DNA from: Pseudomonadota bacterium
GTDB taxonomy: Bacteria > Myxococcota > JACRCW01 > JAFGSX01
Reading direction: 5' to 3'
Length of the DNA: 64,000 bases
Assembly (NCBI GenBank): GCA_043821645.1
Contig: JBDRCO010000072.1
Coordinates: 79,962 to 143,961 of the forward strand
The notes under the pieces were generated by a model. It saw only the letters and a list, made by a program, of their open reading frames with translations, searched no databases and was not told the origin of the DNA. Position numbers and translations under genes: made by a program. Positions 7,183-61,027 of the stretch are shown here, piece after piece (positions within the stretch are counted from its first letter, which is position 1; every line of letters begins with the position of its first letter).

Positions 7183-7803
7183 ATGCACGGTGTGTGGGCC
7201 TTGCTGCTGATGTCACTGCCGACCCGGAGCGCCGCCCATAACCTGGCCAGCATCGACGCGCGGCTGGAGCTGCGAGGGGCTCGTGCCGACCTCCTGATGC
7301 GCCTGGACCTGCGCGATCTGCGACATCTGGTCGAGGTGGATGCGGACGCCGATGGTCGTCTGACCCCTGCCGAGGTACTGGCCACCCGCGACGCCGTCGC
7401 CGAGCTCCTGGCCCAGTCCCTGCGCCTGGTGGCCGAGCCAGACACCACGTCCTGTCCGGTGCACCTGGCCGGCTTCAAGCTCGCCGATTTCTCCACCGTC
7501 GACGTGCACCTGCGCTTCTCGTGCAGCCATGCGATCGGCGGCGCGACCCTGCACAGTGGCCTGTTCGGGGGCACCGGCCATCGCTACCAGCTGCACCTCG
7601 TGGTGACGCGCGGCGACTGGTCCGAGACGCTGCAACTGGATGACGCCCACAACCGCGCCGTGCTGTCGGCGCCGCCTGCTGCGCACGCAGTGGCGTGGTG
7701 GCTTGGGCTCTGCTCCCTGGCCGTGGCGGTGGCGGCTGGACTGTTGCTGTGGGTACGCAGGGATCGCAAGGCAAACGGCCCGCCTGCCTCCCCGCGGGGC
7801 TGA
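7183..7803 (+). CDS. Hypothetical membrane-anchored protein
   Basis: Start at MHGVWALLLMSLPTRSAAH (signal-like), C-terminal hydrophobic helix WWLGLCSLAVAVAAGLLLWV followed by RRDRK; no recognisable domain. Confidence 0.4.
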   Translation: MHGVWALLLMSLPTRSAAHNLASIDARLELRGARADLLMRLDLRDLRHLVEVDADADGRLTPAEVLATRDAVAELLAQSLRLVAEPDTTSCPVHLAGFKLADFSTVDVHLRFSCSHAIGGATLHSGLFGGTGHRYQLHLVVTRGDWSETLQLDDAHNRAVLSAPPAAHAVAWWLGLCSLAVAVAAGLLLWVRRDRKANGPPASPRG

Positions 7804-7813
7804 CCTTCAGGGA

Positions 7814-8461
7814 TCAGGGGGCCGCGACCGGGCTCTCCGTCGACGGGCCTGGGGCTGCGACCGGCATCTCGAGCATCTCGACCATTTCCAGGGCGTCCTC
7901 TTCCATCTCGAGGACCAAGCCATCGACGCGACTCAACACGTAGCGATAGGCCACCAGCGCCGGGATCGCCACGATGAGGCCGTAGGCCGTGGTGAGCAGA
8001 GCCTCCCAGATGCCGGAGGCGAGATCGGCGGGGTTGCCGACGCCTTGCTTGGTGACGTCCTGGAACACGCGGATCATGCCGGTGACCGTTCCCAGCAGGC
8101 CCAGCAGTGGCGCGATCGCGGCGACGATGCCGATGACGCCGACGAAGCGCTCCAGGTTCGCCGCCTCGTGGCGTCCAACCTCCTGCACCGCCTCCTTGAT
8201 CTCGGCGCGCACGCGACCCCGGCGCTTGAGACCCGCCGCCAGCACCGCCGCCACCGAGGAGCTGTGATTCTGGCACAGGACGAGGGCATCACCGGTCTTG
8301 CCGCTGCCCACCAGGTCGTGGATCTTGCGCACGAAGCTCGCAGGCACCACGCGCCCGCGCTGCAGGCTCCACAGCCGCTCGAGGAGGACCGCCAGGGCGA
8401 TCACCGAGCAGGCCGCGATGATGTACATGAGCACGCCACCGCGCTGGAAGAGGTCGAGCAT
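7814..8461 (-). CDS. MotA/TolQ/ExbB-family proton channel protein
   Basis: Start taken at MLDLFQRGGVLMYIIAACSVIALAVLLERLW; three TM helices and the GLLGTVTGMIRVF...EALLTTAYGLIVAIPA core typical of ExbB/TolQ. Confidence 0.65.
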   Translation of the reverse strand: MLDLFQRGGVLMYIIAACSVIALAVLLERLWSLQRGRVVPASFVRKIHDLVGSGKTGDALVLCQNHSSSVAAVLAAGLKRRGRVRAEIKEAVQEVGRHEAANLERFVGVIGIVAAIAPLLGLLGTVTGMIRVFQDVTKQGVGNPADLASGIWEALLTTAYGLIVAIPALVAYRYVLSRVDGLVLEMEEDALEMVEMLEMPVAAPGPSTESPVAAP

Positions 8462-27844: not shown

Positions 27845-27923
27845 TTGCGACGAATTTTGCCCAGGTGCTAGCATGCGGTAGTCTGGTGTTCACACCTCGA
27901 GGTGCCGTGCGGGGACGGCACCA
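27845..27923 (+). promoter_or_regulatory. Candidate sigma-70-type promoter and 5-prime UTR hairpin upstream of first MshEN gene
   Basis: TTGCGA (27845-27850), 18-bp spacer, TAGCAT (27869-27874); then perfect inverted repeat ggtgccgt-gcgggg-acggcacc (27901-27922) 16 nt before the ATG at 27939. Confidence 0.25.
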
Positions 27924-27938
27924 GGTATAGGTTTGTCG

Positions 27939-28712
27939 ATGGATCGACGCATCCGGTTGGGCGAATTACTGCTGCGTGCGGGGCTGATCACCGAGATGCA
28001 GCTCAAGGCCGCCCTCGCGGAGCAGAAGAAGTGGGGAGGACGGCTGGGCACTATCCTCGTCAACATGAATTTCATCTCAGAGGATATCCTGGTCAAGGGC
28101 CTGGCACGCTTGCTCGAAGTGCCCCGGGCGGACTTCGAGAACATGAACGTGCCCGACGTGGTCCTGCAGCGCTTCGACCCCACCGACTGCCAGACCCGTG
28201 GCTACCTCCCGGTGCAGTACAGCCACGCAGAGAAGAAGCTCACCGTGGCATTCGTCGACGTCAACGATCTCGCCCTCGTCGACGAGCTGCGGTTCAAGCA
28301 CGGCCTCAACATTCAGCCCGCCATCACCGGCGAGCACGCCCTGCAGGCCTCGTTGCGCAGTCTTTTTTACAGCGAGGCGCTGGACGCGAGTGTCACCGGC
28401 CAGGAGCCTGGGCTCAAGCTCATCGACAGTCGCGGCGGGACCCTGGTCAAGAACCGCGCGGAGATCTTTGGCAACGAGCCTCCGCCGGCGCCGGTGGCCA
28501 CCACGGGGGTTGAGCGTGCACCCGCCGGTGTGGCCGCGGCCCTGCCGCCCCCCCCGGTGGGCGGGATCCCCGCAGGACTGCTCAACGAGCTCGAGATCGC
28601 GCAGCGGCGCCAGTCCAGAGCCATCAAGACCGTCCTGGAGCTCCTGATCGAGAAGGGAGTGATCTCTCGCGAGGAGTTCGTCGCCAGCGTCAACAAGCGC
28701 AGCGACAGTTAG
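27939..28712 (+). CDS. MshEN (T2SS GspE N-terminal) domain protein, predicted c-di-GMP receptor
   Basis: N-terminal RLGELLLRAGLITEMQLKAALAEQ fits the 24-residue MshEN motif RLGxx(L/I)(L/I)xxG(L/I)(L/I)xxxxLxxxLxxQ; followed by GGRLGTILV...ISEDILVKGLARLL second motif and remainder of a GspE_N fold; Pro/Ala-rich linker and short C-terminal helix. Confidence 0.65.
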   Translation: MDRRIRLGELLLRAGLITEMQLKAALAEQKKWGGRLGTILVNMNFISEDILVKGLARLLEVPRADFENMNVPDVVLQRFDPTDCQTRGYLPVQYSHAEKKLTVAFVDVNDLALVDELRFKHGLNIQPAITGEHALQASLRSLFYSEALDASVTGQEPGLKLIDSRGGTLVKNRAEIFGNEPPPAPVATTGVERAPAGVAAALPPPPVGGIPAGLLNELEIAQRRQSRAIKTVLELLIEKGVISREEFVASVNKRSDS

Positions 28713-36640: not shown

Positions 36641-37723
36641 TCAGCCGCGACAGTTGTCGATGATAGTGCTGCCATCGGTGAAGACCTCGAGATCGCAGGT
36701 CTCGGCACTGCCCCCGACGACGTAGGTGGTGATGGTGCCCGTGGCATGGCCGCCGAGGTCGTAGTGCAGCTCGCCCTCTTGCTCCTTGGGCTGGGCCGTG
36801 AGCTCGTCGTCGAACACCCAGGTCTCGCGGTAGGCTCCACTGTATTCGATATCCTGATGCACGGTCAGGGTCGAGCCATCGGCGTAGTTCTGCGTGTAGT
36901 CGCCCTGCCCCGTGCCCGCAGGCGAGAAATCGTACTGGCCCTGGTAGTCCGGAAAGACCTCGGTGCCCAGGTCATCGTACCGGAACTCGTACCTCAAGCT
37001 GCCGTCGGGAAGCGCTGTCAGCTTCTCGCGCACACCCCAGCCGTCGGTGGTGCTGTCTATGGTCTGCTGGATGGTGCCATCGTGCTGCTCGACCTGGACC
37101 AGGGTCCAGTCCGGACTGATCTCGGTGCCCAGGTCATCGTAGCTCACGCTGCCATTGAAGCGCCCCTCGTCGTCGCTCAGGCCCTCGACCACGAACACGT
37201 GGTCCGGGTAGGCGTACACTTCGCGCAGTTCGGTCAGACCGTTGGCCAGCTCTCGGTACTCGCCCTCGAAGCCGCCGCCCTGGCTCGAGCTGCCGGTGTA
37301 GACGGTGGCGCCGGGCTCCACGGGATCTGGTCGGAAGTTGAACTCCCAGGTGACCTCACTACCGTTGCGAAGCTGGTACACGGTGCTGTAGTGACCGCTG
37401 CCGTCGCCGTTATCCACGCCCTGGGTCAGGACCCTGGCCACCTCGCCGCCCTCGGCGCAGGAATACGCCACCTCGAAGGCTCCCGTGGCATCGGTGTAGT
37501 GCTCGTAATCGGTGCTCCACTCCTGGCAGCTATCGGACTGGGCCTCACCCTCGGCGAGAGCCTTGGCCTCGATGGACGGGATGCCCCGGGCTCCGGTTTC
37601 ATTCGGGGGGGTCAGGTGTGGCACCACGGTGCCAAAGGCGTGAACCGCAGGCACACCCACGTCACAGCCGCCTGCGGCGACCGCCACCCATGCCAGCACA
37701 ACCGTCACAGACGCAATGCGCAT
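36641..37723 (-). CDS. Hypothetical lipoprotein
   Basis: Lipobox VAVAAGGCD; acidic, Gly/Tyr/Asp-rich beta-type sequence; no known motif recognised. Confidence 0.4.
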   Translation of the reverse strand: MRIASVTVVLAWVAVAAGGCDVGVPAVHAFGTVVPHLTPPNETGARGIPSIEAKALAEGEAQSDSCQEWSTDYEHYTDATGAFEVAYSCAEGGEVARVLTQGVDNGDGSGHYSTVYQLRNGSEVTWEFNFRPDPVEPGATVYTGSSSQGGGFEGEYRELANGLTELREVYAYPDHVFVVEGLSDDEGRFNGSVSYDDLGTEISPDWTLVQVEQHDGTIQQTIDSTTDGWGVREKLTALPDGSLRYEFRYDDLGTEVFPDYQGQYDFSPAGTGQGDYTQNYADGSTLTVHQDIEYSGAYRETWVFDDELTAQPKEQEGELHYDLGGHATGTITTYVVGGSAETCDLEVFTDGSTIIDNCRG

Positions 37724-37969
37724 GTCCCGTCCGTCGCGAACACCTCGACGCGGTACATGGATGCGAAACCCGGGCCATCGGGATCAGGTCCGAAGGCGCA
37801 GAAGATCCGGGCAGATCGAGAGGTGATCCGGATTTCGCCCATGATAAATGCGGCCGATTTCATCCAGAGTGGCTGATATGCTCCAGCAGCCTGGTGGATC
37901 CGAACCTCCCGCTCCTGCCCCGACAAGCGCGGATCAGGTGCGGCGCGGCTCTGCCGGGCGGAACATGGC

Positions 37970-46055: not shown

Positions 46056-47966
46056 TCAGGCTCCTGCCTCCGGACGCTCGCTGCGCGGTCGACGACGCAG
46101 GCCTGCCAGCGCCAGCGCCAGCAGTCCCGATGGCGCCGAGGGAAAGCCCTCGCGGCAGCTACAGCCGCGGGCGACCACCGTCGAGAGTTTCTGACTGTCC
46201 GTCGTGACAGGGGCGTCCGCGATCGCACCTCCCTCGACGACGCTGGCCGCGTCCTCGCGGCTTCCATCAACCGCGGCAACATCCGCCCCCATGGCCTGAT
46301 CCGCGGCGAGCAGATCGGCCCGGGCAGTGTCGAGAGGGGAGGCGTCGCCGACGACCTGTGCATCACCGGCCATGGCTGCATCACCTGCGGGCGAAGCATC
46401 GGCAAGCGGTGCACTGTCCACCCTGGCGACGTCGGCCGCGGTCGCAGCATCGGACAGGGCTCCCGAGTCCGCCACCGTTCCTGCATCCGTTCCTGCGTCC
46501 CCGGACAGACCGGCATCCTCGACCGCCTGTGCATCGAGGTTAGAAGTCGCGTCTCGCAGCGGCCCCGCGTCTGTCCCGGGTGGCAGGTACTCGTAGGCGC
46601 CCAGGTCCTCGACGCCCTCCTGCGGCCGCGGCACGCGGTCCCTGTCGTCGACGGGGGCCAGGACGGACGAGCCTACATTGCGCGCCGGGCTGCTGGGGAT
46701 CAGGTGCAGGTCCCCGCCCAGGTAGTTGACGAAGTACGCGTCGACGTCGCTGATCAGAGCGTTGTGGTCCTCGGTCACATCCTGGCCGGCGGCGATGCTG
46801 AGCGCGGTGGTCAGGTTGTTCCGCACCACGCAGCCCGTGCTCGCCGTGCCGTCCTTGTGCAGGCCGATGCTGATCCAGGGCGGGCCTGGGGTCGTGTCGT
46901 TGAGGTCGAGCACGGTGTTGTTGACGATGCGGCTGTTGCGGGCACCGAGCAGGGTGATGCCATGCCAGTGATCGGTGAGGATGACATTGTTCTCGATCAC
47001 CCAGTCGACGAAGAAGCCGTCGAAGCAGCCTATGCCCTGCAGGGTGCCGCGAAAGGGCTGGTTGGGGTCCGTGTAGTTGATGATGGTATTTCCGCGCAGG
47101 GTGATGCCGACGACCTCGCCAGTGCCGACGCCACCAGGGCCCACGGACCAGGACTGAAAGCCGTCGTCGTGGTTGGCATTGACGTCGTAGCAGTTCTTGA
47201 CCGTGTTGTACTGAAAGGTGTCGTGGTCGCCCAGGCCGCGCAGGCCGTCACCGGCGAAGTTCTCGATCACGTTACCCTCGACCAGGCCTCGCGCGCCGCT
47301 CACGGTGATGCCGAAATTGACGTTGAGCAGGTGATTGTCCCGCGCCACGCAGTCGTCGCCGGACACGCTGATGCCATTGCAGGCCAGGTTGTTCCAGTCG
47401 TCTAGGGTCCAGGCCGAGGTGTCGCGCACGCTGAACAGCTCGCAGCCTTCGATGACGACATCGTGGGCGGGCCCGCTGTAGTTGTGCGAGGTCACTTCGA
47501 CCAGGTGCACGGTGGTGTAGCTGGCGTCGTGACTGGGGCTGATGGAGACGCCGCGCAGGAGCCAGTTGGCCGAGGCCACGATGCGGGCGCGCCTGAGCTG
47601 CGGGCTATGCCCGGGTTCGGCAGCGATGGTGACCAGGGCGCTGTTGTACATGCGAAGCAGGTCGAGCTCGCCGTGGTAGCCCGAGCGCAGCCAGATCGTG
47701 TCGCCGGCCTTCACCGGTGCGCCGACGTTGCGCGGCACCAGGGTCGAGCTCGCCGTGTAGGGCAAGGCATCCCAGGTCCGTGTCTCGACAAGGTCGTCGG
47801 CGATCACCTCCTGCAGGGTGCGCCAGGGGTGCGCCGCGCTGCCATCGTTGCCAGGATCGCCAGTGGCAGGGTCGACGTAGAACTCCTCGGCGCGTGCGGC
47901 TGGAACCAGGAGCAGGACCACACCGAGCAGAACGATCGCGGATGGCCGGGTTCCGGAGCAGCGCAT
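46056..47966 (-). CDS. Right-handed beta-helix (pectate-lyase-fold) protein with MYXO-CTERM sorting tag
   Basis: Signal peptide (start MRCSGTRPSAIVLLGVVLLLVPAARA); repeated NxxG/IENN beta-helix rungs (GNVIENFAGDG, NTVKNCYDVNANHDDG, IENNVILTDHWHGIT); C-terminus ARGCSCREGFPSAPSGLLALALAGLRRRP. Confidence 0.6.
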   Translation of the reverse strand: MRCSGTRPSAIVLLGVVLLLVPAARAEEFYVDPATGDPGNDGSAAHPWRTLQEVIADDLVETRTWDALPYTASSTLVPRNVGAPVKAGDTIWLRSGYHGELDLLRMYNSALVTIAAEPGHSPQLRRARIVASANWLLRGVSISPSHDASYTTVHLVEVTSHNYSGPAHDVVIEGCELFSVRDTSAWTLDDWNNLACNGISVSGDDCVARDNHLLNVNFGITVSGARGLVEGNVIENFAGDGLRGLGDHDTFQYNTVKNCYDVNANHDDGFQSWSVGPGGVGTGEVVGITLRGNTIINYTDPNQPFRGTLQGIGCFDGFFVDWVIENNVILTDHWHGITLLGARNSRIVNNTVLDLNDTTPGPPWISIGLHKDGTASTGCVVRNNLTTALSIAAGQDVTEDHNALISDVDAYFVNYLGGDLHLIPSSPARNVGSSVLAPVDDRDRVPRPQEGVEDLGAYEYLPPGTDAGPLRDATSNLDAQAVEDAGLSGDAGTDAGTVADSGALSDAATAADVARVDSAPLADASPAGDAAMAGDAQVVGDASPLDTARADLLAADQAMGADVAAVDGSREDAASVVEGGAIADAPVTTDSQKLSTVVARGCSCREGFPSAPSGLLALALAGLRRRPRSERPEAGA

Positions 47967-48038
47967 GGGGCCTCCGTGGCACACAAGGCCCGAGTATAAC
48001 GTTCTGTCGACGGTTGGGCGACGCGGCAAGGCCCGTGC

Positions 48039-49589
48039 TCAGCCCCGATACTCCCAGTGCCAGTGCTCCGACGGGATGCGCGAGAAGCCGAAGCGGTGGC
48101 CGTTGCGGGCCAGCCAGTTGTAGACCGCGCCCGTGCCCTGGCTGCGGCTCACGCCCTGGGTGTTCAGGTCCAGGGCAATGCCACTTTGGTGGTTGGAGTA
48201 ACCCGGAGGTGCTGCCGGGTTGAAACCGGGCAGGCGGTTGACCCAGCCGTTGTACAGGTACTGCTGCTCGGACATGGTCCTGAAGCCCGAGATGAGCGCG
48301 ATGTTCACGCCGTCCTTGCGCGCGGCGGCCTTCATTTTCAGGTAGGCGCGCGCCGTGTCCTTCTCGACCAGCTCGCCCTCGATGGGCACGACCTTGATGT
48401 TCCGGGACACGCCATTGACGTAGCCGGTGGCCGCACGCACCGGCAAGCCGTGAATGGGATCGCGCTGCGCCTTCTCGACCCGCTTGAGCGCCTTGAGCGT
48501 GGCCTGGCCCACGCCGTTGCCCTTGCCGTCGAGGTGGTGCTTCTGCCGGAAGCGATCCAGGGCGCGCTGGGTGCCCTCGGTGTACAGGCCGTCGACCTTG
48601 CCCGGATGGAAGCCGACCTTCTTAAGCAGCTGCTCGGTGCGCTTGACCGCGGCCGAGTGCTCGCCGATGCGCTGGTGTGGCGAGGTGGCGCTCTTCGCTT
48701 CCAGCGTCGCCCTGGACAGGCGATTCCAGGTGGCGGCGTCGACGCGGCCGCTGACCTCGAGACCGGTCTTGCGCTGGAACTCCTTGACCATGCCCTCGGT
48801 GCGGTCGTCAAACATTCCATCCTTGCGCTGCGGATCAAAACCCGCGGCCTTGAGGTGACCCTGCACCACCTGCACGGCGCGGCTCTTGTCACCGCGACCG
48901 AGGCCACCGCTGCCGTCGGCGTGCTGCTGGGCGGCGGCCCGCTCGACGATGCGATCGCTGCGGCGGCGCGCGTCCGAGGGCTTGACCCGCGCGCGATGGG
49001 GCGCGTGGTTGAGCGCTGCAGTCTCGTGCCGCAACACCGAACGACTGTTATTGCCGAGCAGGCCGCTCTTGGCTTGCCGCCTGAGCTCGGGCTGGTCGCG
49101 CTTGAAGGCCTTGACTGCGTCGGCGGTCTGGCCGTCGAACACGCCGTCGACCTTGCCCACGTCGTAACCCAAGCGGCGCATGCGTTGCTCGAGCTTCTCG
49201 ATGTGCTCGCCCTTCTGGCCACGCCCCACCTTGCCATTGTGCTCGCGCTTGGCGGTGCGCGCGCGCTCGTTGACCTTGCCCAGCTTGTTCAGGGTCGCAC
49301 TGGTGATGCGACCGTCTGCCGTCAGGCCCATGGAGGTCTGGAACTCCTTGAGCGCGTCCTGGGTCAAGCGCGTGTACTTTCCATCGACCTTGCCTGGCTT
49401 GAATCCCGCGCCCTTGAGCAGGCGCTCGGCTTTGCGCACGGTGGCGGGCTCGTACACATCTGCGGGATTCGTCTCGGCCGGGGGTGTGGGTTCGGTGGGC
49501 GGGGCCGCTGCTGGAGGCTGGCTGCTCGCTGCCGCAGGCTGGCGTGCCGCGCGGATGCCGCGAGTAGTCGAAGAAGTGGTGGCCACCAT
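48039..49589 (-). CDS. Peptidoglycan-binding-domain protein with C-terminal M15-type (VanY-like) peptidase domain
   Basis: Four repeats of GKVDGxxxxxTxxAxKxFQ (PG_binding-like); C-terminal SGFRTMSEQQYLY ... GYSNHQSGIALDL ... SEHWHWEY zinc-peptidase motifs. Confidence 0.6.
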   Translation of the reverse strand: MVATTSSTTRGIRAARQPAAASSQPPAAAPPTEPTPPAETNPADVYEPATVRKAERLLKGAGFKPGKVDGKYTRLTQDALKEFQTSMGLTADGRITSATLNKLGKVNERARTAKREHNGKVGRGQKGEHIEKLEQRMRRLGYDVGKVDGVFDGQTADAVKAFKRDQPELRRQAKSGLLGNNSRSVLRHETAALNHAPHRARVKPSDARRRSDRIVERAAAQQHADGSGGLGRGDKSRAVQVVQGHLKAAGFDPQRKDGMFDDRTEGMVKEFQRKTGLEVSGRVDAATWNRLSRATLEAKSATSPHQRIGEHSAAVKRTEQLLKKVGFHPGKVDGLYTEGTQRALDRFRQKHHLDGKGNGVGQATLKALKRVEKAQRDPIHGLPVRAATGYVNGVSRNIKVVPIEGELVEKDTARAYLKMKAAARKDGVNIALISGFRTMSEQQYLYNGWVNRLPGFNPAAPPGYSNHQSGIALDLNTQGVSRSQGTGAVYNWLARNGHRFGFSRIPSEHWHWEYRG

Positions 49590-49726
49590 GGCGGACTCCT
49601 TGTTCGAGGACGTCCGGGGTATCGGTGGGTCTATGTGCGCAGGTGTGGGATTCGGGGTCGGTCAACGGGTGGTCCGCCACATGACCGATGCTTCCGTGAT
49701 CGCCCAGATATCCGCGAATTTCTGGC

Positions 49727-50584
49727 TCAATCGAAATCCAGCCAAAGCACGGTGTCGGCGTCGCGGACCACCGGGCCAGGGACAAAGGACTGGCGGTGGC
49801 GGACCACCTTCGAAATGTGGACCTCATCGATCTCGCCCAAGAAGGGCGTGCGCAGACCCGTGTCCCCCTGGGGGCTGCGACACAACCACAGGCTGTCCAC
49901 GGCATGGGCCACCCCCTCTCCTGCAGGCCACTGGCCACCCGCGGTGGCGCGCTCGCCGTCGATGTACAGGTTGGTGCGCACCACACCGTCGGGCTGGGTC
50001 TCCACCGACGCGGCCAGGTGATGCCAGGTGCCGGGCTCGACCGGGTGCAGCCACCCCATGCCCCGTCCGCCGTTGACTTGACCCTCGCGCAGACGGTGGC
50101 TCTTGAAGCTCACGGTGCGGTAGGTGCGCCCCACGCCGTCACCCAGCTCGACGTGAAAGTCGTCCTCGCGGGTGTCGCGGCGTGGCGCCACCAGCAGGTC
50201 CACCGGCCGCGAGCCCAGGTCGCCCACGGCAGCGGGCCTGAACCAGAACTCCACGCTCAGGGCCTGGGTACCGTCAAGGGCAGCGTCGAGATCCAGCTGC
50301 ATGCCGTCGATGCCATCGCAGCGGAGCGACTGACCCGAGGGCGCCCGCGGCGGCGACCCAGGCAGCACCAGCGCCTCGGCCACGGCGACCTTAGGCGCCC
50401 CTGACCCAACGCGACGCCCGGATAGTCGCGGCGCCTCAGCGCGCTGCAGGGCGCCGGTGACGACGGGAGCGGGGAGATCCTGCGCGGGCCCGGGCGGCAA
50501 CCAGCCCTGCTCGCACTGCTCGCCACTGCCGGCGAGGGCCATGGTCAGCACGAGCACAAGGCGAACCATCGATGCCGATTTCAT
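49727..50584 (-). CDS. Secreted protein with LamG/concanavalin-A-like domain
   Basis: Signal peptide MKSASMVRLVLVLTMALAGS; beta-sandwich-type sequence (ALSVEFWFRP, WHHLAASV, LYIDGE) typical of LamG-like lectin fold. Confidence 0.4.
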   Translation of the reverse strand: MKSASMVRLVLVLTMALAGSGEQCEQGWLPPGPAQDLPAPVVTGALQRAEAPRLSGRRVGSGAPKVAVAEALVLPGSPPRAPSGQSLRCDGIDGMQLDLDAALDGTQALSVEFWFRPAAVGDLGSRPVDLLVAPRRDTREDDFHVELGDGVGRTYRTVSFKSHRLREGQVNGGRGMGWLHPVEPGTWHHLAASVETQPDGVVRTNLYIDGERATAGGQWPAGEGVAHAVDSLWLCRSPQGDTGLRTPFLGEIDEVHISKVVRHRQSFVPGPVVRDADTVLWLDFD

Positions 50585-57446: not shown

Positions 57447-58388
57447 TCACAACAGCGCGGTCGAGAAGTAGCGCTCGGCGCGGTCGGGCAGGATCGTGGC
57501 CACCCTGGACCTGGGTCCCAGCCGTTCGGCGACGATGCGCGCGGCAAACACATTGGCGCCGGCCGAGGTCCCGACCAGCAGGCCCTGGGCGCGCGCCAGC
57601 TTGCGCGTGGTGTACACCGCGTCATCGTCGGAGACGGTCACCACCTCGTCGATGATGCGCGGGTCGAGCACCTTGGGCACGAAGCCATCACCGATGCCCT
57701 GGATCTGGTGGATCACGTGCAGGCCGGGCTCGATGCCAAGCAGCGCCGAGAAGCCGTCGGGCTCCACCGCCACCAGCGTGACCTCGGGGTTCTTCTGCTT
57801 GAGGAAGCTGCCCACGCCCTGCAAGGTGCCACCCGAGCCCACTCCAGCGACAAAGGCGTCGACGCGGCCATCCATCTGCTGCCACAGCTCGGGTCCGGTG
57901 GTCTGGAAGTGGATCTCGGGGTTGTGTGGGTTGTCGAACTGACCCACACGCCAGACGTTCTTGTTGAGGGCCACCAGCTCCTCGAGCCGCCGCACGGAGC
58001 CTTCGATGCTCTGCTCGGTGGGCGTCAGGATCAGATCAGCGCCAAGGGCGCGGATCAGCTTCTTGCGTTCCTCGCTCATGGACTCGGGCATCACCACCAC
58101 CACCCGGTAGCCCTTGCAGCGCCCGACCATCGCAACACCTATGCCGGTGTTTCCCGAGGTGGCCTCGGCGATGATCATGCCCTTGCGCAGATCTCCCTTG
58201 GCCTCGGCCTGCTCGATCATGTGCTTGGCCACGCGGTCCTTGACCGAGCCCCCCGGATTGAGGAATTCGGCCTTGCCGAACACGGAGCCGGTGCGCTCGC
58301 CCGGCTCATCGATGTGGACCATCGGCGTGTTGCCGATGAGCTGTAAGACGCCCGTGGCCTGGCTCCGCACGTGCTCGATGACGTTCAT
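57447..58388 (-). CDS. cysK: Cysteine synthase (PLP-dependent, CysK/CysM family)
   Basis: Start MNVIEHVRSQ; PLP-lysine motif SVKDR, TSGNTGIG loop, GxGSGGT glycine loop. Confidence 0.8.
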   Translation of the reverse strand: MNVIEHVRSQATGVLQLIGNTPMVHIDEPGERTGSVFGKAEFLNPGGSVKDRVAKHMIEQAEAKGDLRKGMIIAEATSGNTGIGVAMVGRCKGYRVVVVMPESMSEERKKLIRALGADLILTPTEQSIEGSVRRLEELVALNKNVWRVGQFDNPHNPEIHFQTTGPELWQQMDGRVDAFVAGVGSGGTLQGVGSFLKQKNPEVTLVAVEPDGFSALLGIEPGLHVIHQIQGIGDGFVPKVLDPRIIDEVVTVSDDDAVYTTRKLARAQGLLVGTSAGANVFAARIVAERLGPRSRVATILPDRAERYFSTALL

Positions 58389-58494
58389 GCTGTACTCCCG
58401 CAGCGGGGGAAAAACCTGCCGCGCTTTCGCTGCGATGAGCCTATCGCGAGTTGAGCTGCCCGGAGAGTGAAGATTGCACACGCTGGGTCCCGAC

Positions 58495-60922
58495 TCAGCG
58501 TCGCCGACCCCGGATCAGCAGCACGGCGAGGACACACAGCAGCGCCAGGCCGCCGGACCGAGGAACAGCGCTGCATCCTCCCGCCACTGCCGTGCCCTCG
58601 TCGTCGACGGTCCCCGCGAGACCGGGGTCCATTTCCGGCTCCAGGGTCTCCACGTCGATGCCGCTTGCGGCGTCGTCCACCGAGGCCTCGGCGGCGTCGG
58701 GACTCGCCCCGCCATCTCCGCCGCCATCGAAGACGGGCGGCATTCCTGCGTCGGCCTCGCCGGTCGCATCCGCCGAGCCATTCGAATCCGTTCCGGCGCC
58801 GGTGTCCGCAGCGAGGTTGGCATCCACAAGACCGGCATCAGGTGCCACGCAGGTCCCCTCGTCGACCAGGCCATCCCCGTCGTCGTCCCGGCCATTGCAC
58901 CGCTCCACACCCCCGCCGCGGTCCCGCGAAGCGCAGCGTGCTGTAGTACTTGAGACTGCCCCAGCCCACCTCGTCCGTGAGTGCTGGGCCCATGATCGCG
59001 GCCGAGAACCCGCTGCCCGTGGAGCGGTAGCAGCGCACACCAGCCGAGCCGCGCGCGCACAGATCGGCCTTGCCGTCCCCGTCGAGGTCACCCAGGCGCA
59101 GACTGCTGTAGTAGGTGTGGAAGTTCCAACCCGAGGCGTCGCTGAGTGTGGGTCCGTCAACGCGCTCGCCGAAACTCGAGCCCAGCCACTTCCAGCAATA
59201 CACCCGCGCGTTGGCACGGGCGCACAGGTCCAGGTCGCCGTCACCGTCGATGTCTCCCAGGCGCAGGCTGGCGTAGTTGCCGTGATCACGCCAGCCCGAG
59301 CTGTCAGCCATGCCAGGTCCCGCGGTGGCAGGGACGAAACCTCTCCCCGTCGACAGGTGGCACTCGAAGCTGGCGCTGCCTCGACCACACAGGTCCGCCT
59401 TGCCGTCGTTGTCGATGTCGGCCAGGCGTATGGTGCTCCAGTAGGGCACCTGGGCCCAGCCGGAGGCATCACTCCAGGCCGGACCGTTGATCAGGGTCGG
59501 GAAGCCCACACCGTCGGACAGCCAGCACTGCATGCGGTTGTTGCTGCGTGCACAGACGTCCTCCTTGCCGTCGCCATCGACGTCGCCCATGCGGATGGTG
59601 CCGAAGTGATCCTCGGTGTTCCAGCCGTTGGCGTCTGATAGAGCCGGACCGCTGATGGCGGCGCCAAATCCACTGCCGGTCGAGGGATAGCAACGAAAAC
59701 CCGCGGCGGCCCGGGCGCAGAGGTCGTCCCTGCCGTCGCCATTGATGTCTGCAAGGCGCAGGGTCGAGAAGTACTGCGGCTTGCTCCAGCCCGACGCGTC
59801 AGACAGGGCCGGTCCGTCCTGGCGGGGCGCGAAGCCACTGCCCGTGGAGCGCCAGCACGAGAAGCCCGCATCGCGCCGTGCGCACACGTCGCCCAGGCCG
59901 TCGCCGTCCACGTCGCCAATGCGCAGGGTGGCGAAGTTGGTCTCGTCGTCAAAGCCCGAGGCGTTGGACAGATCGCCCAGCTGCCAGCGCGCACCGAAGC
60001 CACTGCCCGTCGAGGGGTAGCACAGCAAGCCACCCGAGGAGCGAGCACACAGGTCGGCCTGGCCGTCGCCGTCGAGGTCGGTGGAGCGTGCATCGTCCTG
60101 CTGGTGCGCCTGAAGGACCACCTCGTCGACGGACCAGTCGCAGGACCCGGGGTTGCCGCTACCGGTGGCGTGCACGGCCAGGTGATTGCCCACCACCCGC
60201 TCGCTTCCGTCCGACGGATGATTGACCACGCCGGAGCCACGGAGCCACATGGTGGTCGAGCCTCCGCCGTCGAGATTGATCGCGGTCCAGGCTCCCAGAC
60301 CCTTCATCAGGGTGCCGAGCTCGGCGCAGGTCATACCGATGCTCGCGCTGGTGCGCCCATCGACCACTGCCAGGAACAGGGTCTGTCTATCGCGGGAGAA
60401 ACCCGCGGCGGTGCGCGGGTGGCGCTGGGAGCAGTCGGAGCGGTTGAAGCTCGCCGGCACGCCACCGTCCTGCACGAGGATGGGTCGTCCTCCCACCGCC
60501 TGCTGGACCCAGGACGGCACGCTGCTCAGGGTGCTTAGGTTGACCAGCGCCGTGTCATCCCCGAACACCAGCTCCAGCGACCCACTGCGGTCCGGCTTCC
60601 ACACGTGGCCGTTGCCCACCGCGAGATCCGTCGGGAAGTAATCGGTGTAGCTGAAGAAATCGCCGTTGATCGCAGCCTCGGCGCCCACCAGATTGGCAAA
60701 GGATGAGGTGGTGCGACGGTGCTGGCTCTCGTCGGTGGCCTGCAGGCGGACCCCGCGGGCGCACAGGTCAATCTTGAGCGCGTGGATGCGCCAGGGATTG
60801 CTGGTGCTGCGCGTCAGATGGCGAATCCCGGGATGCGGTGTGGTCCAGGTGTCGGTGGCGCGGACAGGAACGACCAGCAGCAGCACAGGAAGGATCGCGA
60901 GAACACTGTTCCGGGGTTTCAT
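58495..60922 (-). pseudogene. Secreted phosphodiester-glycosidase-like / FG-GAP-repeat protein with MYXO-CTERM tag, reading frame broken at a C5 run
   Basis: ORF 58838..60958 (start MKPRNSVLAILPVLLLVVPVRA at 60922) carries NAGPA-like region and six DxDGDGxxDLCAR repeats, then turns to nonsense after ...STLRFAG; ORF 58495..59472 in another frame supplies ...ERCNGRDDDGDGLVDEGTC... and the tag GGCSAVPRSGGLALLCVLAVLLIRGRRR. Removing one base in the ccccc run near 58910-58914 joins them. Confidence 0.5.
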
Positions 60923-61027
60923 GTTCCAGATTTCAGCAGGCGCGAGCGCACCCGCCATCCGTCAAGCGGGGGAGGGTCGGACAGAGGGAGGAGGATGAGA
61001 CGGCCAGGTGCCGACCCCGGCTGATGG

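Follow-up and report, generated by a model that had tools for sequence, protein, structure and literature searches.

On the minus strand of the window, which is the whole 64 kb stretch of DNA analysed here and has a GC content of 68%, a gene for a putative surface glycosidase is spread over two reading frames (Table 1). The first of these, referred to as frame A, opens with an ATG at 60922-60920 and ends at a stop codon at 58838-58840, and its translation is deposited at NCBI under the title 'MAG: phosphodiester glycosidase family protein [Pseudomonadota bacterium]', the source being a MAG and the contig 161 kb long. The second, frame B, is shifted by +1 relative to frame A and, starting far upstream, stays open as far as the stop codon at 58495-58497; over 58498-58908 it encodes a CNGRDDD cysteine motif, followed by an acidic linker and then by a MYXO-CTERM-like tail, reading VERCNGRDDDGDGLVDEGTC, then the linker, then GGCSAVPRSGGLALLCVLAVLLIRGRRR and the stop. 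Once a single base is removed, the two frames join into a product composed, in order, of a signal peptide, a NAGPA domain, a seven-bladed FG-GAP propeller, the Cys motif, the acidic linker and the MYXO-CTERM-like tail. As annotated, MFH1810237.1 is a truncated reading of this gene, in which the sorting tail has been missed. The downstream neighbour is a PALP/cysteine-synthase-like gene (57450-58412, minus strand), while an SRPBCC/polyketide-cyclase-like gene and a HEAT-repeat gene lie upstream, and genes for an S49 peptidase and a Yip1-domain protein are found nearby on the other strand. No neighbouring genes are held in common with the nearest homologues (L001 and L082-L085), and for this reason orthology cannot be demonstrated by synteny and no operon logic can be drawn from the surroundings.

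Table 1. Positions of the disrupted gene and its constituent features within the window
Feature	Position	Strand	Remark
Whole disrupted gene	58495..60922	minus	808 aa once one base is removed
Frame-A ORF, 694 aa	58838..60922	minus	Identical to NCBI MFH1810237.1
Signal-peptide-like N-terminus, MKPRNSVLAILPVLLLVVPVRA followed by TD	60854..60922	minus	Read off the sequence
NAGPA (phosphodiester glycosidase) domain, residues 80-250	60173..60685	minus	Pfam PF09992
Seven-bladed FG-GAP / integrin-like beta-propeller, residues ~276-668	58919..60097	minus	Pfam, motif count, AlphaFold2 model
G5 run on the coding strand (C5 on the plus strand)	58910..58914	minus	Likeliest place of the extra base by parsimony (G4 to G5)
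Out-of-frame tail of the truncated product, ending in CGAVQWPGRRRGWPGRRGDLRGT, with stop codon	58838..58909	minus	ORF reading
Frame-B Cys-rich acidic motif, ERCNGRDDDGDGLVDEGTC	58849..58905	minus	Homologue alignment
Frame-B acidic low-complexity linker	58582..58848	minus	Equivalent D/G/A/P-rich linker in homologues
MYXO-CTERM-like sorting tail, GGCSAVPRSGGLALLCVLAVLLIRGRRR	58498..58581	minus	Stop codon 58495-58497 follows

The domain content of the frame-A half can be assigned with well-supported models. Directly after the signal-peptide-like N-terminus, the alignment of homologues displays the family consensus AxAxDTW. The phosphodiester-glycosidase-like region that a preliminary description of this DNA had placed in the N-terminal ORF corresponds to the Pfam model PF09992 (NAGPA), which is matched over positions 2-168 of 169 at 134.8 bits against a cut-off of 25. 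Further along, PF13517 (FG-GAP_3) scores 100.9 bits against a cut-off of 26.9 and PF01839 (FG-GAP) 71.2 bits against 22.1. The DxDGDGxxDLCAR repeats described earlier are indeed carried by the N-terminal ORF, but there are seven of them rather than six, the motif DxDGDGxxDxCAR starting at residues 282, 337, 392, 447, 502, 557 and 612 with an exact period of 55 residues, and all seven propeller blades lie upstream of the frameshift. The 694-residue product was modelled as encoded with AlphaFold2 from a 70-sequence alignment, giving a mean pLDDT of 92.5 and a pTM of 0.89; residues ~23-670 are predicted at pLDDT above 90, and values below 50 are confined to residues 1-4 and to the out-of-frame tail at residues 673-694, the latter being the only disordered part beyond the extreme N-terminus, a pattern in line with a real mutation.

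The frame-B half is likewise intact, although it returned no matches in Pfam. When it is aligned with homologues, its cysteine motif represents a two-Cys variant of the family motif CxxExCNGxDDDCDGxxDEGC, the first of the four cysteines being replaced by R and the third by G in the repaired product, while the nearly invariant family residues E673, C675, G677, D679, D681, D687, E688 and G689 are all kept. The same paired loss of cysteines is observed in the intact homologues P0011, P0021, P0027 and P0030, and the two-Cys motif is therefore not regarded as a sign of decay. The acidic double-disulfide repeat model NF033662 matched the Cys motif weakly (E = 4.7e-4), below its cut-off. Conserved residues, cysteines, TM segment and RRR end are all preserved downstream of the break, and an artefact would look alike.

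The extreme C-terminus of frame B is laid out as GGC-SAVPRSGG-LALLCVLAVLLI-RGRRR before the stop, in agreement with the tripartite definition of MYXO-CTERM signals, in which an invariant Cys motif is followed by a TM helix and finally by a cytoplasmic end rich in Arg (Guo, Haft & Wall 2025; PMC11980579). When compared with the NCBIfam models, it scores 15.1 bits against TIGR03901 (cut-off 20) and 14.2 bits against TIGR03382 (cut-off 15.85), both below threshold, whereas the tails of six of eight homologues at the same alignment position pass the TIGR03901 cut-off. In an alignment of 18 sequences G782, C783 and R806 are invariant, and in one of 70 sequences C783 alone is invariant and G782 nearly so. 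Since the tail falls below the cut-offs yet is tripartite and aligns with homologue tails that pass, it is referred to as MYXO-CTERM-like by virtue of its position and layout, rather than as a model-certified member; the C-terminal sorting tag proposed in the preliminary description is upheld to that extent. With the MYXO-CTERM/myxosortase (MrtX) system it shares the Gly-Cys signature, the hydrophobic helix, the Arg-rich end and the position, and it departs from that system in carrying GGCSAV in place of the commoner GGCGC, in its sub-threshold score, and in being out of frame as sequenced, since it is shifted by +1 against the ORF that carries the signal peptide and is thus not in frame with the exported protein.

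Comparison with homologues, which come almost entirely from Myxococcota or Bradymonadales, supports the view that the two frames are parts of a single gene broken by a one-base frameshift. A protein search returned 2,510 matches at E ≤ 1e-10, and the best 119 of these (the protein's own entry left out) have a median length of 786 residues, each being a single gene product. All of the homologue C-termini inspected cross the junction in one frame, reading YYSTLRLAGPRCxPExCNGRDDDCDGxxDEGC, an acidic linker, GGCGC, a hydrophobic helix and RRRR, and none of them ends at this point. Over its whole length, the repaired product can be aligned with homologues some 800 residues long, at 46-61% identity, and among the matches listed after the protein's own 694-residue entry the nearest homologues are at most 64% identical. 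The protein belongs, at 61-64% identity, to a family already known and widespread. A profile HMM confined to the C-terminal parts, derived from 58 homologues to the exclusion of the window, ranked the stretch 58498-59490 on the minus strand first among 927 six-frame stretches of the window (E = 4e-8; runner-up 0.027). With a full-length family HMM, profile positions 7-674 of 776 could be aligned to frame A, and the alignment breaks off near the junction, at residue 697 when 58401-61000 (minus strand) is translated in frame 0; the short, low-complexity frame-B piece was not reported by this full-length model. The 137 stop-free codons of frame B constitute weak evidence by themselves, because 9-23% of off-frame 137-codon windows are likewise stop-free. 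The earlier proposal of a split FG-GAP surface-protein gene is supported by the homologue alignments, the codon comparison and the profile searches taken together.

The site of the lesion can be narrowed considerably by the family alignment. On the coding strand the run reads GGGGG (CCCCC on the plus strand, flanked by TGCACCGCTCCACA and GCCGCGGTCCCGCG), and deletion of one of its bases yields an uninterrupted ORF of 808 residues, as had been anticipated in the preliminary description. Every one-base deletion from 58900 to 58934 has the same result, and for this reason restoration of the ORF alone cannot place the lesion. Frame A matches the family through STLRFAGPR and frame B from (V)ERCNG, while the five nearest homologues (P0002-P0006; 58-64% identity) carry (A/S/R)GPRC, four residues and then CNG. 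The family spacing between GPR and CNG is five residues, and it is recovered only by the removal of one base, which gives GPR-RGVER-CNG. At the codon level, the window reads CCG CGG CGG GGG T GTG GAG CGG TGC where homologue L082 reads CCG CGC TGT GGG GCC GAG CGC TGC, exactly one surplus base being present within CGGGGGTGTG (58906-58916). The position is hence known to within about 10 nucleotides: the alignment bounds the indel to approximately 58906-58916, half of which is filled by the G5 run. Given that share of the interval and the return of the family spacing upon removal of one G, a change from G4 to G5 is the most parsimonious event; the run named in the preliminary description thus stays the favoured site within a slightly wider interval. 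A codon-usage Viterbi frame tracker applied to the whole 64 kb placed the junction at 58922/58923. An indel at the TT dinucleotide at 58929-58930, which would give LRSRDRGGGVERCNG as in some distant homologues, was discarded in view of the (A/S/R)GPRC of P0002-P0006 and the AGPR of frame A.

The same tracker provides a view of the sequence quality of the window, in which the junction is the only true same-strand frame switch. Three further candidates (~7664-7863, 49477-49729 and 54680) proved to be N-termini of low complexity or the ordinary starts of genes, and a naive GC3 strand plot was too noisy to serve in the search for other frameshifts. Runs of five C or G occur 84 times in the window and runs of six 21 times, alongside a single G7 (37605-37611) and a single C8 (28548-28555), and the longer and more error-prone of these (C8, G7 and the six-mers) all lie inside intact coding frames. 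Because the longer runs are in frame and no other frameshift was found, indels are not a general problem of this assembly, and a real mutation is thereby modestly favoured.

The most likely reading, with a probability that we put just under an even chance, is that the extra G is a genuine, very recent and unprogrammed mutation in the sampled population. In this scenario, strand slippage would have added one G, most parsimoniously by extending G4 to G5 at 58910-58914, and the frame would move by +1 immediately beyond the final blade of the propeller. The resulting product would retain complete catalytic and propeller domains and end in about 24 aberrant residues, with Cys motif, linker and sorting tail all missing. 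Such a protein would presumably still be exported and yet not be processed or anchored via myxosortase, with surface display lost or altered. If the frameshift is real, the population has just lost the surface anchoring of one enzyme, an everyday event of genome evolution. Homopolymer frameshift pseudogenes and MAG assembly indels have in common with this locus a one-base change at a short G/C run, recognisable halves and repair by a single edit; no feature sets the present gene apart from them, and it is an ordinary case.

The principal alternative, to which we assign a substantial probability somewhat further below an even chance, is an assembly or consensus error, in which case the gene of the organism is intact with G4 and its true product is the anchored 808-residue protein. 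Consensus indels do occur in MAGs, and homopolymers are where they arise; here the record is a MAG, a single contig carries the protein and the lesion sits at a homopolymer. The 137 downstream codons, moreover, keep every family-conserved residue and a coding-like composition, and at least one other homologue (P0073, 631 residues) ends in an apparently out-of-frame Arg-rich tail, so that breaks of this kind are probably present in assemblies of the family. Weighing against an error, no other frameshift is present in the approximately 55 genes of the window, with the C8, the G7 and the six-mers all in frame, and a five-base run is short for systematic homopolymer error. A DNA pattern of exact flanks with a gap of 4-6 bases had no match in JGI metagenomes, protein-seeded scans of GTDB representatives and JGI metagenomes found nothing closer than 61%, and no second contig of the same population, by which the allele might be confirmed, was found in JGI metagenomes, GTDB representatives or the protein collection.

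It is improbable that the truncation is both real and maintained, as a functional allele from which a released, unanchored enzyme brings an advantage. The catalytic and propeller domains of the truncated product are complete and confidently folded in the AlphaFold2 model, and about 19 of the 119 listed homologues have no recognisable tail according to a crude pattern, as would suit such an allele; however, most short homologues look like truncations at contig ends or by frameshift, and the dead frame-B sequence lacks any decay, which argues against a long-term truncated state.

An equally small probability is given to the idea that the G tract is a phase-variable contingency locus, slipping usefully so as to toggle surface anchoring or expression. 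The preliminary description had raised a slippery homopolymer as an expression switch, and a homopolymer lesion in a surface-protein gene does belong to a class in which switches are generally known. Homopolymer switches typically comprise at least 7 bases, as in glpK of M. tuberculosis (7C) and in the poly-G tracts of Campylobacter and Neisseria (G8-G13). The Neisseria and Campylobacter poly-G loci and the glpK tract share with the present locus a frame-controlling G/C homopolymer in a surface-protein gene, but the tract here is much shorter, at only 5 bases, is usual for a genome of 68% GC, being one of 84 C5/G5 runs in the window, and is missing from the site in the four nearest homologues (TGCCGACCC, TGTGGGGCC, TGCCGGCCC and TGTCGCCCC), the longest run being the GGGG of L082. 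Together with the longer runs that stay in frame elsewhere in the window, these observations speak against the proposed switch. Slightly less probable still is a particular form of this idea, in which the tract is length-polymorphic (G5/G4) in the population and toggles at a low rate between two forms of a GlcNAc-phosphodiester glycosidase-lectin, one anchored via myxosortase and the other released; if true, this would be a contingency locus with a short tract, in a Myxococcota-like bacterium of high GC.

Least credible of all is programmed +1 ribosomal frameshifting or transcriptional slippage, by which a full-length protein reading FAGPRRGVERCNG across the junction would be made: although the shift needed is +1 and GGG-G could in principle permit re-pairing of tRNA-Gly, the two-frame arrangement is not conserved, the best 119 homologues being single products, the 106-nt downstream fold is unremarkable against shuffled sequences (z = -0.30, no unusual RNA structure), the shift site itself has no stop or hungry codon of the kind used in prfB, frame A terminating only some 70 nt further on, and G5 is, to our knowledge, too short for known RNA-polymerase slippage.

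Regardless of how the extra base arose, the family itself, with more than 2,500 matches and a widespread occurrence in Myxococcota, combines an uncovering-enzyme-like glycosidase with a propeller, and may be of more use than the frameshift. A literature search for phosphodiester glycosidase and FG-GAP in combination found no papers. Structural comparison of the AlphaFold2 model with the PDB by Foldseek matched the catalytic domain to BACOVA_00430 (3ohg; E = 2e-14) and to vertebrate NAGPA (6pku, 6u11 and 6pki; E ~5e-12 for 6pku and 6u11), with an overall range of 1e-11 to 2e-14. The domain thus has in common with the NAGPA / DUF2233 family, which includes the vertebrate 'uncovering enzyme' and BACOVA_00430, both a Pfam score well above the cut-off and a predicted fold, and differs from it in being joined to a propeller and a myxobacterial sorting tail. 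We know of no bacterial member of the NAGPA / DUF2233 family with a demonstrated substrate.

For the propeller, the best structural matches were the GlcNAc lectins PVL and PAL of Psathyrella (2bwr, 4up4 and 5mb4), with a target-normalised TM of 0.80-0.81 and an rmsd of 2.5-2.8 Å over about 410 columns, and AAL2 of Agrocybe (4tqm) was likewise matched. Closure of the seven-blade ring is indicated by superposition of the model on the seven-bladed PVL (target-normalised TM 0.81). On the basis of this predicted fold, the propeller is probably a GlcNAc-binding lectin module, and its closeness to GlcNAc-specific fungal lectins suggests that the family comprises surface enzymes aimed at GlcNAc-phosphate-linked glycans. 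From the two modelled domains we infer a surface glycosidase for GlcNAc-phosphodiester-type linkages, which would be targeted by a GlcNAc-binding propeller. The features shared with PVL, PAL and AAL2, all of which bind GlcNAc, are the seven-bladed FG-GAP propeller fold and DxDxDG loops of the Ca-binding type; sequence identity to these lectins is only about 20%. GlcNAc binding by the bacterial propeller is no more than a lead taken from the fold comparison. Each of the bacterial blades also carries a conserved Cys pair (C..R...C), which is absent from the description of the fungal lectins.

The structures nearest to the predicted propeller of the split gene are fungal GlcNAc-specific lectins, namely Psathyrella PVL/PAL and Agrocybe AAL2 (target-normalised TM about 0.8). 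This lectin-like fold is joined, within the same protein, to an NAGPA (uncovering-enzyme-like) domain, and the combination hints at a GlcNAc-directed enzyme-lectin pair in a family that numbers more than 2,500 database matches at E <= 1e-10. Each blade of the propeller contains a conserved Cys pair. In the Cys motif that follows the propeller, the first and third cysteines are both missing, being replaced by R and G, and the same joint loss is found in four intact homologues (P0011, P0021, P0027, and P0030). For the CxxExCNGxDDDCDGxxDEGC module, this pattern fits disulfide bonds that link C1 with C3 and C2 with C4.

Positions in the window of the features discussed
Feature	Position	Strand	Remarks
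Propeller of split gene	58919-60097	minus	beta-propeller, predicted structure
Cys motif of split gene	58849-58905	minus	
Right-handed beta-helix protein	46059-48038	minus	660 aa, PF13229
C8	28548-28555		one of two longest window homopolymers; inside ORF 27882-28712 (+)
G7	37605-37611		one of two longest window homopolymers; inside minus-strand gene at about 36651-37724

Another family member, P0073 (631 aa, from a Logan assembly), stops suddenly partway through a blade, and its Arg-rich end (...DLCGGRRRAALLEVRGRGVR) seems to be read in the wrong frame. Public assemblies probably contain repeated cases in which this GC-rich repeat gene is cut short in a frameshift-like manner. Judged by tract length, C8 and G7 would make stronger candidates for slippage than the split gene's G5 run (58910-58914); the coding frames around both are unbroken.

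The C-terminus of the beta-helix protein (...GCSCREGFPSAPSGLLALALAGLRRRPRSER) looks like a MYXO-CTERM-type signal. An NCBIfam search of this protein returned no match at E <= 1, and the C-terminal profile built from 58 homologues of the split-gene protein reached only E = 0.039.

The MAG behind MFH1810237.1, the first-frame product of the split gene, is labelled 'Pseudomonadota bacterium' in its NCBI record. Both the homologues of the split gene and the gene's own MYXO-CTERM-type tail instead suggest Myxococcota or Bradymonadota. The label probably survives from an older assignment to 'Deltaproteobacteria'.
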